From: a virus
Lineage: Duplodnaviria; Heunggongvirae; Uroviricota; Caudoviricetes
Length of the DNA stretch: 64,000 nucleotides
Reading direction: 5' to 3' (one strand)
IMG/VR virus record: IMGVR_UViG_2684623127_000006
Part shown: one piece after another, positions 883 through 3,526 of the stretch
Numbering within the stretch: the stretch's first letter is position 1
Layout: the number at the start of each line of letters is the position of its first letter
The notes under the pieces: generated by a model
What the model was told of the DNA's origin: nothing
Databases searched by the model: none
Seen by the model: the letters and a program-made list of their open reading frames with translations, nothing else
Made by a program: the position numbers and the translations under genes

Positions 883-1051
883 CGTGACGTTCCTTTGGGT
901 GGGTGAGCCAACGCCCGGGAGCGATCTGCCCACAGAGAAAGTCACACTGACCACTCCGTAAGCTCACCCCCGAAAGGCTCTGTGGTTGGTATGCGCCGGG
1001 CGTGGCGCAGATACAAAAAAGGCCCGCCGAAGCGAGCCTGGAAAATAAGTG

Positions 1052-1128
1052 TGGCGCGTTGTAGTGGAGTCGAACCACTGACCGATTGCTTAGAAGGCAA
1101 TTGCTCTGTCCGGCTGAGCTAACAACGC
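1052..1128 (-). tRNA. tRNA-Arg (anticodon UCU), phage-encoded argO-like
   Basis: 77-nt cloverleaf by manual folding: acceptor GCGTTGT/ACAACGC, anticodon loop CTTCTAA, T-loop TTCGACT, 3-prime CCA encoded. Confidence 0.75.
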
Positions 1129-1141
1129 AGAATACCGATAA

Positions 1142-1221
1142 TGGACCGCCATCGGGGACCCGGCCCCGCACCAACAACCCTGTTATGGTGTCGTCTGCTC
1201 TTCCTGATAAGCTAATGGCGG
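1142..1221 (-). tRNA. degenerate tRNA-like element (probable tRNA pseudogene replacing the Arg-UCG tRNA of prophage 2)
   Basis: Acceptor-stem ends CCGCCAT/ATGGCGG and CCA conserved with 49064-49140, but internal arms diverged; 6-nt T-loop without TTCGA consensus, no clean anticodon arm. Confidence 0.3.
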
Positions 1222-1228
1222 TTTGTGA

Positions 1229-1304
1229 TGGTGGCCCTTGCTGGATTTGAACCAGCGACCTGGCGATTATGAGTCGCTCGCTCTCACCACTGAGCTAAAG
1301 GGCC
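1229..1304 (-). tRNA. tRNA with CAU anticodon, probably tRNA-Ile2 (ileZ-like) rather than Met
   Basis: 76-nt cloverleaf: acceptor GGCCCTT/AAGGGCC, anticodon loop CTCATAA, T-loop TTCAAAT, CCA encoded; C4/C5 in acceptor stem as in Ile2. Confidence 0.75.
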
Positions 1305-1332
1305 GAGCCAAAAAATAATAATCAGATGAAAA

Positions 1333-2046
1333 TCAATAATCAAGCCCTTGCCTGGATACATATCTGTCTGGCGGGAAGCCATAATAGCGGTGAAATACAG
1401 AAATAAAGTAGGACCGGCTTGAATAACCACATTTTTCTGCTACAGCCTGTCCATATCCATACCGGGAACATAACATATTTACAGCAACACGCATCCGCTC
1501 TTCCAGCAACAAGCGACTGAACATGCCCCCTTCATTTTTCAGTTTTGTCTTTAACAAACTCTCACTCATATGCAACTGTAGAGCAATCGCACCAAGCGTC
1601 CAGCTTGCTGATATATCTGTCTGAATTATCGCCCTGACTTTGGCACTTATGCTGGATAAACATCCACTTAAAAACAATGACATCCGTTCATCTGTTTCAA
1701 ACAGAGACAGGCAGGCCATCATAAGAAACATATCCGTGACCTCTCCGGAAAATCCCTGGCTGGTAATTAAAGCCGCAGCCAACGCAGGATTGTTGGGTTC
1801 CAGCAACAGGTAAAGCGGAATGTCAGTCAGACGAGTCCTCGTCAGCTTATGCTGACTTTCCAGATATTGACTTACGACGGATTCGCTTATATCGACAATT
1901 TTAACTTTGCCATAATGCATAAGGAAAAGCTCCCTGATGCATTTGGTGGCCAGAACGACTGAGCCTGGCTTAAGTGACAACGTATCCTTTTCAAGAAAAA
2001 TATTAATTGGGGAGCAAACCATGATAACTGAACAGACAACAGCCAT
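1333..2046 (-). CDS. AraC-family transcriptional regulator (prophage moron)
   Basis: 237-aa ORF; C-terminal AraC-type HTH (…AVAEKCGYSSRSYFISVFHRYYGFPP); inserted between Q-like gene and tRNAs, absent from prophage 2. Confidence 0.7.
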   Translation of the reverse strand: MAVVCSVIMVCSPINIFLEKDTLSLKPGSVVLATKCIRELFLMHYGKVKIVDISESVVSQYLESQHKLTRTRLTDIPLYLLLEPNNPALAAALITSQGFSGEVTDMFLMMACLSLFETDERMSLFLSGCLSSISAKVRAIIQTDISASWTLGAIALQLHMSESLLKTKLKNEGGMFSRLLLEERMRVAVNMLCSRYGYGQAVAEKCGYSSRSYFISVFHRYYGFPPDRYVSRQGLDY

Positions 2047-2181
2047 TATAATTTTACTTTCATTAGCAATTGGTTAGCTCAATTATAGCCCCAAAAGGTA
2101 AATTATCATCAACACATAAGCAAAGGACTGACAGGTGCCGCCCCCCCCACCAGCCGCCCATTTACCACAAATAAAAAGCCT

Positions 2182-2379
2182 TCAGGACTGAATGCGTCTG
2201 TAACAACCGCACTGATAGTCTGCCAGACCCGCCATAACCAGCTGGGTCAGTATTAACTGGCAGCGTTCGCGTGAAAGGTAAGTATTCTGCGCAATCTCCC
2301 CGACTGTCGCCGGTTCGGTAACGCTTAATTCATTAAACACCACTCTGGCGGTTTCTGTCATATCCTGCTGTTTTAGCAT
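2182..2379 (-). CDS. small putative DNA-binding protein
   Basis: 65-aa ORF from MLKQQDM with AAGGGAAAAAG RBS-like sequence upstream; longer listed ORF start abuts terminator hairpin. Confidence 0.3.
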   Translation of the reverse strand: MLKQQDMTETARVVFNELSVTEPATVGEIAQNTYLSRERCQLILTQLVMAGLADYQCGCYRRIQS

Positions 2380-2500
2380 GTCTTTTTCCCTTTTCCGGTT
2401 AACGTGACATACCAATAACTCTTGTCGAAAAAGCCAGCAAGTTGAAAGACCGGTATTAGCAACCACCAGCGCGTTTAACGCCCCGTGCCGTTTTTCAGTC

Positions 2501-2526
2501 ATAAAAAAACCCGCAAAAAGCGGGCT
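2501..2526 (-). terminator. rho-independent terminator downstream of Q-like gene (tR-prime-like)
   Basis: Minus-strand hairpin CCCGC-TTTTT-GCGGG followed by U7 tract. Confidence 0.5.
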
Positions 2527-2603
2527 CTTTCAAATGTCCATGTCTGCTATTCGCCTCGCGGTACAGCTTTGCGAAGCTTACCGGAATTGAAGCAGTTTTT
2601 ACG

Positions 2604-3170
2604 TCAAAAAGCAATAACTTTTTTCTCTATACCAAAAGCCATAACCATTGGTTTGTACAAAATAAATTCTGCCACCTTTAGCCAATGCTCAATGCGTCTT
2701 TCACAGGTTCTTAAACTCCATTCCGGATGTGCATCATTCAGCAATTCAGCCATTTTGCGCTTAGTCATCCCCCGCCCCACATAACGCTGACTCAGAACAT
2801 TGAGCAGCCCGGGATAACCTGCCAGTACTTCACCAATAACCCTATCGATTATTAACGCCTCTGAATCGGTACAATGTGCCAGCCAGCTTTTTTGATTGCC
2901 GTTGATCATATCCCGCAAAAAAGCCTCAAGTTCAGGTTTGTCCAGACCCGCTTTTTTCATCCTCCGGAGCGCCTCGTTAATTGCCGTTTTTGTCAGCTTT
3001 TTAGAGGTCAGTAATTGGTTGAACATATTTCCCGTCTTACCGTCGCCAATATACGACCAACGCCCCCACATACGCAGTTTCCCCTGGATCCAGACACTTT
3101 CCAGCGTTTTCAGGCGTAAATGCTCACCGCTTTTGCCTGTAATTTCCGGGTATATCATATTTATGCTCAC
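2604..3170 (-). CDS. putative late-gene antiterminator Q-like protein
   Basis: 188 aa; position between rusA and tR-prime/tRNAs; WGRW motif region resembles Q family (QuuD-like ERWGAW); assignment by synteny and weak similarity. Confidence 0.5.
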   Translation of the reverse strand: MSINMIYPEITGKSGEHLRLKTLESVWIQGKLRMWGRWSYIGDGKTGNMFNQLLTSKKLTKTAINEALRRMKKAGLDKPELEAFLRDMINGNQKSWLAHCTDSEALIIDRVIGEVLAGYPGLLNVLSQRYVGRGMTKRKMAELLNDAHPEWSLRTCERRIEHWLKVAEFILYKPMVMAFGIEKKVIAF

Positions 3171-3220
3171 TCACTTTCAATTTTGTAAATCTTCACGCCC
3201 AGCCGCCCACCAGAAACGAG

Positions 3221-3526
3221 CTAGCCGCGCACAATATTGATTTCATCAAACTGCTCGTCGTCTATGAGAAGTCCGGCATGCGTCAGCGCATCCAGTGGTG
3301 CTTTCAGGATATTGTCCAGGTCACGACGGCGCTTATCCGGTGGCTCTGCAATAATCTTTATCGCCAGCCTTCCGGACAGGTTTAATTTCAGCCGCTGCTG
3401 GCGAACAATAAGTGCCACATCCCGGCGATAACGCTCACCGGCTTTTGATACAAAATATGTGCTGCCACGACGTCGCCAGTAGGTGTTCACCGTCGGCGGG
3501 TAAGGCAAAACAAACTCTATACGCAT
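3221..3526 (-). CDS. rusA: RusA Holliday-junction resolvase, C-terminally shortened (TAG where prophage 2 copy has CAG)
   Basis: MRIEFVLPYPPTVNTYWRRRG… RusA family; 101 aa versus 119 aa in 50120-50479 copy. Confidence 0.8.
   Translation of the reverse strand: MRIEFVLPYPPTVNTYWRRRGSTYFVSKAGERYRRDVALIVRQQRLKLNLSGRLAIKIIAEPPDKRRRDLDNILKAPLDALTHAGLLIDDEQFDEINIVRG

Follow-up and report, generated by a model that had tools for sequence, protein, structure and literature searches.

The stretch of DNA analysed here (64,000 nucleotides (nt), hereafter the window; Caudoviricetes, IMG/VR record IMGVR_UViG_2684623127_000006) holds two prophages. Prophage 1 carries, between its Q-type late antiterminator gene and its tRNA genes, an open reading frame (ORF) of 237 amino acids (aa) that we identify with very high confidence as psrB, a known prophage AraC/XylS regulator of Escherichia coli O157:H7. 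As this regulator has already been studied, the finding is a rediscovery. A second ORF of 65 aa lies between psrB and Q. An initial annotation had placed both ORFs between Q and the tRNAs, and their coordinates (1333-2046 and 2182-2379, both minus strand) were confirmed, RefSeq giving the same ends. Our overall reading is that psrB, with its published function, occupies a cargo slot of the late operon, would be expressed both from its own promoter and by Q-dependent transcription, and adjoins a 65-aa gene of the prophage backbone; taken as a whole, we consider this picture highly likely.

The initial annotation had called the 237-aa product an AraC-family regulator, and profile searches uphold this. 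Residues 155-230 match PF00165 (E = 2.9e-13, 50 bits against a cut-off of 26.6) and PF12833 (E = 2.4e-09, 37.8 bits against 33.6), both above the Pfam cut-offs, and the C-terminal DNA-binding domain has the two helix-turn-helix motifs of AraC/XylS proteins. Matches in the PDB were the DNA-binding domains of GadX (best, E = 2.2e-18), Rns, CsvR, and ToxT. The best NCBIfam match was YdeO (NF007407), over the full length (E = 2e-30) but at 106.1 bits against a cut-off of 348, followed by GadX (NF007432) at 87.3 bits against 500 and over the C-terminal half of the protein only. These scores are far under the equivalog cut-offs, and orthology to YdeO or GadX was rejected. The protein nevertheless resembles the chromosomal YdeO, GadX, and GadW and the DLP12 prophage protein AppY in AraC/XylS membership, the acid-fitness island, and gadE activation. 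It differs from this group in being prophage-borne and in the narrowness of its family (52 clusters among 5.8 billion proteins), all named members of which come from E. coli or Shigella.

The identification as psrB follows from location and copy number. The 2.2 kb at 1000-3200 of the window are 100% identical to many E. coli O157:H7 chromosomes, EDL933 included, and in the gapless EDL933 assembly the 237-aa gene lies at 1,905,274-1,905,987. This falls within the published coordinates of O-island (OI) 57, 1,849,324-1,929,825, the home of psrB (z2104) (PMC8565820). The old and gapless EDL933 coordinates match within a few kb at OI-50 and agree also for the OI-57 marker adfO/paa. Of 5426 complete E. 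coli genomes, 829 carry a psr gene, and most of the O157 genomes sampled have exactly two copies. The two EDL933 copies are 91% identical to each other, and the published identity of PsrA and PsrB is 90% (PMC10877973). Since the gene lies in OI-57 and the two O157 copies show nearly the published identity, we identify it as psrB. Its sequence is that of the OI-57 copy of EDL933, at 91% identity to the sole other O157 copy, and between PsrB and the window gene no difference is detectable, the assignment being made by coordinates. The gene lies in the lambdoid late region of its prophage, and a PerC/Pch-family gene is found in the same EDL933 prophage as well as next to the paralogue. Tree, in 2011, reportedly described the Psr family as prophage-encoded secretion regulators confined to prophages and linked to effector loci and to regulators of the Pch (PerC) family.

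The initial annotation had also proposed a comparison with Psr/Pat-type regulators of enterohaemorrhagic E. coli, and the gene is of that type: besides 91% identity to the paralogue and the OI-57 location of PsrB itself, psrB shows 37% identity over its full length (E = 3e-54) to the AraC protein of CP-933H, which we take, from its position there, to be PatE (z0321). PatE, too, is AraC-like and prophage-borne, activates gadE and hdeA, and belongs to the same strain; however, it is a distant paralogue and lies at the end of a thrW-integrated prophage remnant (CP-933H/OI-8), away from the slot that separates Q from the tRNAs. PatE-like AraC genes (27-38% identical to PsrB) were also seen in many coliphages (mEp332, the Lambda_ev series, ev099, and the P1-like phi456), in mEp332 after the tail genes and not after Q. 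Therefore, YdeO/Psr/PatE-like regulators appear to be recurrent phage cargo in more than one slot. In composition, psrB has 9 rare ATA/AGA/AGG codons among 238 and a G+C content of 43.8%, the neighbouring few hundred bases having roughly 42-50%. PADLOC gave no defence-system match for PsrB.

The function of PsrB is known from the literature, and the rewiring of host virulence and acid-resistance regulons suggested in the initial annotation agrees with it (PMC10877973, PMC8565820). According to reviews, PsrB binds the hdeA and gadE promoters; PsrA and PsrB raise GadE and YhiF, leading to indirect repression, in trans, of type III secretion from LEE, the locus of enterocyte effacement; and with PsrB, cells survive pH 2.5-3.5 better and pass more readily through the mouse stomach (PMC10877973, PMC8565820, PMC4456613, PMC10057817). 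The acid phenotypes were obtained with induced expression (PMC10877973). Deletion of psrA gives a secretion phenotype without prophage induction (PMC10877973, PMC8565820). Binding of PsrB at hdeA and gadE would thus raise GadE and YhiF, switch on glutamate-dependent acid resistance and the HdeAB chaperones, and indirectly lower LEE type III secretion. The full-length, YdeO-like resemblance of PsrB fits a mechanism through gadE activation.

Several points weigh against the reading given above. The naming as PsrB draws on coordinates and on identity to the paralogue. The model that AlphaFold2 gives for PsrB is poor (mean predicted local distance difference test (pLDDT) 61.7), too poor to read a ligand pocket, and the psrB promoter discussed below is a consensus match only. 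Deletion of psrB alone barely affects secretion (PMC10877973, PMC8565820), and psrB may therefore be poorly expressed in lysogens. The location of the paralogue also disagrees with its published place. Reviews put psrA (z1789) in OI-50 (CP-933N) (PMC10877973, PMC8565820). In the gapless EDL933 assembly, OI-50, the potBC-integrated prophage at 1,626,000-1,675,900, has no psr or other AraC gene and no small ORF, and the paralogue lies in the yccA-adjacent prophage (the CP-933M position) at EDL933 1,266,008-1,266,721 (locus L014, 18009-18722). With psrA absent from OI-50 and present near yccA, the published locus assignments map uncleanly onto the current assembly; either the original assembly was chimeric or the psrA locus assignment needs revision.

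The paralogue locus is closely similar to that of the window. PsrA is also 237 aa long (91% identity), and the order after Q is again small ORF, psr, and tRNAs, with a PerC/Pch gene nearby. It differs in the Q type (PF06530, 123 aa), in a frameshifted small ORF, in three intact tRNAs, and in the presence, after Q but before the terminator and leader, of a gene encoding a 272-aa intramembrane protease of the CPBP family (L005, 3963-4781; L014, 16570-17388). PADLOC gave no match for this CPBP protein.

Prophage 1 reads, on the minus strand, RusA, Q-type antiterminator (DUF1133), intrinsic terminator, 65-aa ORF, 237-aa AraC-family ORF, tRNA-Ile2, and tRNA-Arg. The features are as follows, in window coordinates.

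3221-3526, minus: RusA
2604-3170, minus: Q-type late antiterminator, DUF1133 family (RefSeq start 3158)
2533-2612, minus: candidate pR' and short leader, read by eye
2502-2532, minus: predicted intrinsic terminator, tR'-like (GC hairpin and U-run)
2463-2470 (in the leader) and 2147-2154, minus: Chi sites (GCTGGTGG), by pattern search
2404-2441, minus: conserved promoter- or operator-like element 5' of the 65-aa ORF
2182-2379, minus: gene of the putative 65-aa winged-helix protein (phrog_331; RefSeq WP_000917763.1 in EDL933, same end)
1307-2109, minus: exchanged cargo segment (psrB, upstream promoter-like region, and 28-nt tail)
2082-2109, minus: psrB sigma-70 promoter-like site ATGATA-16-TATAAT (consensus scan, 10/12)
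1333-2046, minus: psrB, 237-aa AraC/XylS family (WP_000301797.1 in EDL933, same end)
1315-1343, minus: promoter-like site TTGATT-17-TATTAT (consensus scan match, 9/12)
1229-1304, minus: tRNA with CAU anticodon, annotated tRNA-Ile, ileZ type (ARAGORN; Rfam tRNA, 72.5 bits; RefSeq)
1052-1128, minus: tRNA-Arg(UCU) (ARAGORN, Rfam)
1020-1039, minus: terminator-like hairpin after tRNA-Arg(UCU) (terminator scan)
from 451, minus: TerB-family gene

The limits of the psrB cargo become visible against a neighbour prophage of EDL933, whose order is DUF1133-type Q, 65-aa ORF, DNA methyltransferase, tRNA-Ile, and tRNA-Arg. Homology to that prophage runs from 3600 to 2110 of the window and from 1306 to 1017, at about 83%; in between, 1307-2109 holds psrB here and a 1173-bp (base pair) methyltransferase segment there. 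Because homology breaks at 2110 and resumes at 1306, the alignment confines the exchanged cargo to these 803 bp, namely psrB with about 63 nt upstream and 28 nt downstream. psrB is thus in the first cargo slot of a lambdoid late operon, after Q, the pR'/tR' leader, and the 65-aa gene and directly before the tRNAs.

Both ORFs had been described as an inserted moron, a description that holds for psrB and fails for its small neighbour. The psrB segment is swapped for a methyltransferase in a like prophage and is absent from prophage 2, and it brings a promoter-like site of its own (ATGATA-16-TATAAT; a sequence match only) whose TATAAT is kept in all contexts. It brings no terminator of its own, the terminator scan finding none in the 28 nt between the psrB stop and the tRNA; at 1341-1354 the scan gives a 5-bp hit that extends over the psrB stop, and the next convincing hairpin is that at 1020-1039. 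For the 65-aa ORF, in contrast, homology to the neighbour prophage continues through the gene to 2110, its module occurs in 2901 of the 5426 complete E. coli genomes (53%) against the 829 with psr, and beside the O157 paralogue it is a frameshifted pseudogene. The contrast with prophage 2 drawn in the initial annotation was also borne out: prophage 2 has a PF06323 Q at 49434-50129 with its own terminator hairpin (dG -21.2 kcal/mol) and three tRNAs at 48974-49223, and no ORF lies in the gap of about 200 bp between Q/terminator and tRNAs.

A different arrangement was seen in E. coli GCA_001902735.1 (L017, 2512-4723), where Q (PF03589), the small ORF, and the methyltransferase are followed by a 240-aa Psr-like gene (63% identity), with two copies of an STnc100-family small RNA (sRNA) at the usual place of the tRNAs. 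This locus looks like an intermediate architecture, and since the psr-like gene there comes after both small ORF and methyltransferase, it shows the AraC gene to be an add-on. Elsewhere, a gene for an sRNA of the STnc100 family is found after the tRNAs of the paralogue locus (L005, 6470-6660) and after stx2B in a phage carrying Shiga toxin genes (L015, 6806-7000; see below), and at 1009-1113 of the window there is only a partial, sub-threshold match, overlapping tRNA-Arg and its terminator.

The Chi sites at 2147-2154 and 2463-2470 flank the small ORF in the orientation of the late transcript. The former lies about 40 nt upstream of the cargo junction and is invariant in all four aligned loci. 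Prophage 2 likewise has a Chi site after its tR' (49303-49310, minus). The whole window contains 15 Chi sites, 11 of them on the minus strand, against 2.5 expected from shuffles. Any involvement of these sites in the cargo exchange is speculation.

Conservation argues that the 65-aa ORF is a real, widespread prophage backbone gene and not part of the psrB cargo. Its ratio of nonsynonymous to synonymous substitutions (dN/dS) is 0.06-0.11, with dS up to 1.2. Read mechanically, the ORF would begin at 2502 and reach 106 aa; this longer reading was rejected, since homologues have 1- and 2-nt indels upstream of the 65-aa start that break the frame. Across 22 loci, both the ATG of the 65-aa start and a Shine-Dalgarno-like stretch are kept. 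The protein belongs to phrog_331 (E = 3.9e-37; function unassigned) and has 303 homologues in Enterobacterales, an exhaustive HMMER search of 1.84 billion representatives giving 61 clusters. Beyond E. coli, the gene occurs in Salmonella, Klebsiella, Citrobacter, Kluyvera, Buttiauxella, Erwinia, Mixta, and Plesiomonas.

The product had been called a small putative DNA-binding protein, which is plausible from its structural model. AlphaFold2 predicts, from a shallow alignment (pLDDT 89.7), helices at residues 7-16, 26-33, and 37-49 and a hairpin at 53-62, corresponding to the winged-helix topology H1-b1-H2-H3-b2-b3, and Foldseek returns winged-helix domains of IclR, MarR, and Z-alpha type (TMq 0.7-0.8, best E about 2e-3). 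The protein is thus probably DNA-binding, although as a backbone gene product and not as a moron or a partner of PsrB. Its assignment to the TrmB family (PF01978), a label found in some records, was rejected, as the match reached 16.7 bits (E = 0.0066) against a gathering score of 25.6. PADLOC returned for this ORF only a marginal SWIM_XIII match (E = 0.0032, 14 bits).

Two other views of the small ORF deserve consideration. One, implicit in the initial annotation, is of a two-gene regulatory cassette in which the winged-helix protein and PsrB move and act as a unit. The two genes are indeed adjacent in all three psr contexts (window, O157 paralogue locus, and the Shiga toxin phage), and the winged-helix model is confident. 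However, the swap boundaries leave the 65-aa ORF out; it is frameshifted beside the very paralogue whose deletion shows a phenotype; it is found in far more genomes than psr (2901 versus 829); and other genera pair it with a methyltransferase, without psr. Furthermore, the second copy of the upstream motif described below sits before the methyltransferase and is absent before psrB. We therefore regard such a cassette as very unlikely. Still more improbable, to the point of being nearly discounted, is that the 65-aa ORF is not a gene but a conserved non-coding leader RNA of the late operon. Its position between two terminator-like hairpins, beside a highly conserved non-coding stretch, and its RefSeq label (hypothetical only) would suit such an RNA, whereas the low dN/dS at dS values up to 1.2, the conserved ATG and Shine-Dalgarno-like stretch, the pLDDT of 89.7, and the PHROG family match are those of a protein-coding gene. 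Thus, the interpretation that we retain is a backbone gene encoding a probable DNA-binding protein.

The usual partner of the small gene is a methyltransferase. About 150 nt downstream of the 65-aa gene, 21 of 23 species loci have an ORF of about 350 aa, as does every other locus examined, and all 16 of the ORFs tested are N6_N4 DNA methyltransferases (PF01555). In the PADLOC analysis, the methyltransferase is an ordinary type II-like enzyme. The pair sits between Q/tR' and holin in lambdoid prophages across Enterobacterales (L006-L013, L017, L019-L040); in EDL933 it is found at 1,857,681-1,859,087 (L041, 14382-15788). Such conserved pairing suggests a functional link, described by no source, between the 65-aa gene and the methyltransferase.

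Upstream of the small gene lies a conserved bipartite element. It lies at 2404-2441 (minus) of the window and can be written CTTGCTG-N12-(C/A)AGAGTTAT..GTATGTCAC; its fuller form across 22 loci from many enterobacterial genera is CTTGCTG-N12-(C/A)AGAGTTAT(C/T)TGTATGTCAC, with invariant blocks at fixed spacing. In geometry, the window copy has TTGCTG (2440-2435) and, after a 17-nt spacer, TATTGG (2417-2412), with an A at 2405 that does not vary; across loci, TTGCTG is followed after 17 nt by TATYTG, a non-canonical -10, and after a further 6 nt by the invariant A. The element lies about 30-66 nt upstream of the small ORF (L006, L009, L020-L040), its motif being at -41 to -44 from the small-ORF ATG in 26 of 29 loci, and it is far more conserved than the synonymous sites of the adjacent ORF. 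In 7 loci, a related sequence, CAGAGTTAC, precedes the ATG of the methyltransferase by 13 nt. Folding of the conserved leader with RNAalifold gave -0.56 kcal/mol and no covarying pair. An RNA-level reading was dropped, as there was no covariation and the hairpins read by eye were out of register, and a DNA-level element is preferred. A sigma-70 promoter was likewise not adopted, since the scan calls none and the -10-like hexamer ends in G; hence the label promoter- or operator-like.

It is conceivable, although we would give this only a small chance, that the 65-aa protein is a dedicated controller of the first late-operon cargo slot, a C-protein-like timer for a phage orphan methyltransferase. 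As parts of that same doubtful proposal, the protein may act through the element at 2404-2441 and the related CAGAGTTAY motif before the methyltransferase start codon; the module, with its Chi sites, may also be a recombination platform for swapping in cargo such as psrB; and an intact small gene, as in the window, could influence read-through into psrB.

The late control region has the lambdoid Q/tR' layout, a Q-family gene being followed by an intrinsic terminator and then by late genes. The Q gene (2604-3170) matches DUF1133 (E = 3.7e-105) and, in Pfam, Phage_antitermQ (33.1 bits against a cut-off of 26), and belongs to phrog_753, 'anti-termination protein Q-like' (E = 5.8e-81). The tR'-like terminator reported in the initial annotation is confirmed as a hairpin with U-run at 2502-2532 (dG -18.2 kcal/mol, z -4.76), none of 200 shuffles folding as well; related loci keep a hairpin at this position with different stem sequences. 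A candidate pR', TTGCTT (2612-2607)-17-TTCAAT (2589-2584), was read by eye (8/12) and is not called by the consensus scan; it would yield a terminated RNA of about 75 nt. The sequence upstream of the terminator follows the Q type, being conserved between DUF1133 loci and unrelated in loci with PF06530 Q. From the terminator on, the loci share a common module in which the hairpin is followed by the leader and the small ORF, then by another hairpin across the small-ORF stop (weakened in the window copy, z +0.64), and finally by about 45 nt including Chi. This layout agrees with a pR' specific to the Q type, giving a short terminated leader, and with late-operon DNA common to the loci beyond it. 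Matches of the tR' hairpin to isrK (2504-2577, minus; 19.8 bits under the Rfam gathering score of 50), STnc370, and Trp-leader were rejected as sub-gathering and mostly terminator-driven. Six related loci scanned with Rfam gave no isrK match at threshold, and in the Rfam scan of 900-3300 of the window only the tRNAs reached threshold.

How psrB is expressed can be approached from its own promoter-like site. The TATAAT, 36-41 nt before the ATG, is invariant in the O157 paralogue, in the copy of phage phiSTEC1575-Stx2k, and in the 63%-identical homologue that follows the methyltransferase. In a lysogen, psrB would most likely be transcribed from this predicted, conserved sigma-70-type promoter, and induction of the prophage would draw it into Q-antiterminated late transcription as well. 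Such coupling to Q-dependent late transcription, which the initial annotation had anticipated, is plausible from position and strand. One may ask instead whether psrB is a late gene only, silent in the lysogen and transcribed solely when Q antiterminates at tR', so that PsrB would act at prophage induction together with the late genes (stx in Stx phages) and not as a regulator of lysogenic conversion. The gene does lie on the late-operon strand downstream of Q and tR', and the weak hairpin after the small ORF (z +0.64) leaves no strong terminator between tR' and psrB. In phiSTEC1575-Stx2k, the 91.6% homologue runs in the same direction, directly before the tRNAs and stx2k, and the little secretion phenotype of the psrB deletion and the induced expression behind the acid phenotypes, as given by reviews (PMC10877973), point the same way. 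On the other hand, the TATAAT site travels with psr in every context examined, the psrA deletion phenotype is seen without induction (PMC10877973, PMC8565820), and transcription from an own promoter and by Q-dependent read-through can coexist. An exclusively late psrB is therefore possible but rather unlikely, and dual expression is the model that we favour.

The slot itself is known from other lambdoid phages. Like stx and other cargo between Q and the lysis genes, psrB lies after pR'/tR' and beside tRNAs of the ileZ-argN-argO type; unlike stx, it encodes a regulator and not a toxin, and it has its own promoter-like site and no terminator of its own. In phage phiSTEC1575-Stx2k (OQ243220.1, 16390-19071; L015, 4143-6824), the small ORF, the 91.6% PsrB homologue, three tRNAs, and the A and B genes of stx2k follow one another in the same orientation, so that Shiga toxin and a Psr-type regulator occupy a single late-operon slot. 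The AntQ-isrK-orf45-anrP locus of Gifsy-1 (PMC4825925) shows a similar succession of Q, short terminated leader RNA, small ORF, and regulatory gene, with a weak isrK-like match in the leader. However, that match scores 19.8 against the required 50 bits, and orf45 and AnrP are likened to the 65-aa ORF and PsrB by layout, not by homology.

Downstream of psrB, the site TTGATT-17-TATTAT overlaps the last psrB codons and is directed towards the tRNA 10 nt further on. Between the two tRNAs, 1129-1228 (minus) holds a degenerate tRNA-Arg(UCG) remnant, not called by ARAGORN, whose 5' and 3' ends align to its intact counterpart in prophage 2 and in the paralogue locus, the middle being replaced. The EDL933 methyltransferase prophage likewise has only a pair of Ile and Arg tRNAs.

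PsrB is among the horizontally acquired regulators that link the acid resistance of O157:H7, and hence its low infectious dose, to type III secretion; this is established, and nothing in it is new here. What the present analysis adds are the exact limits of the 803-bp cargo, with psrB having taken the place of a methyltransferase gene in a defined slot, and the recognition that the small gene, widespread and uncharacterised, belongs to the backbone and has an invariant element upstream. It further adds that the O-island assignment of psrA mismatches gapless EDL933, which is relevant to the design of deletions and to the interpretation of O-island knock-outs in this pathogen.

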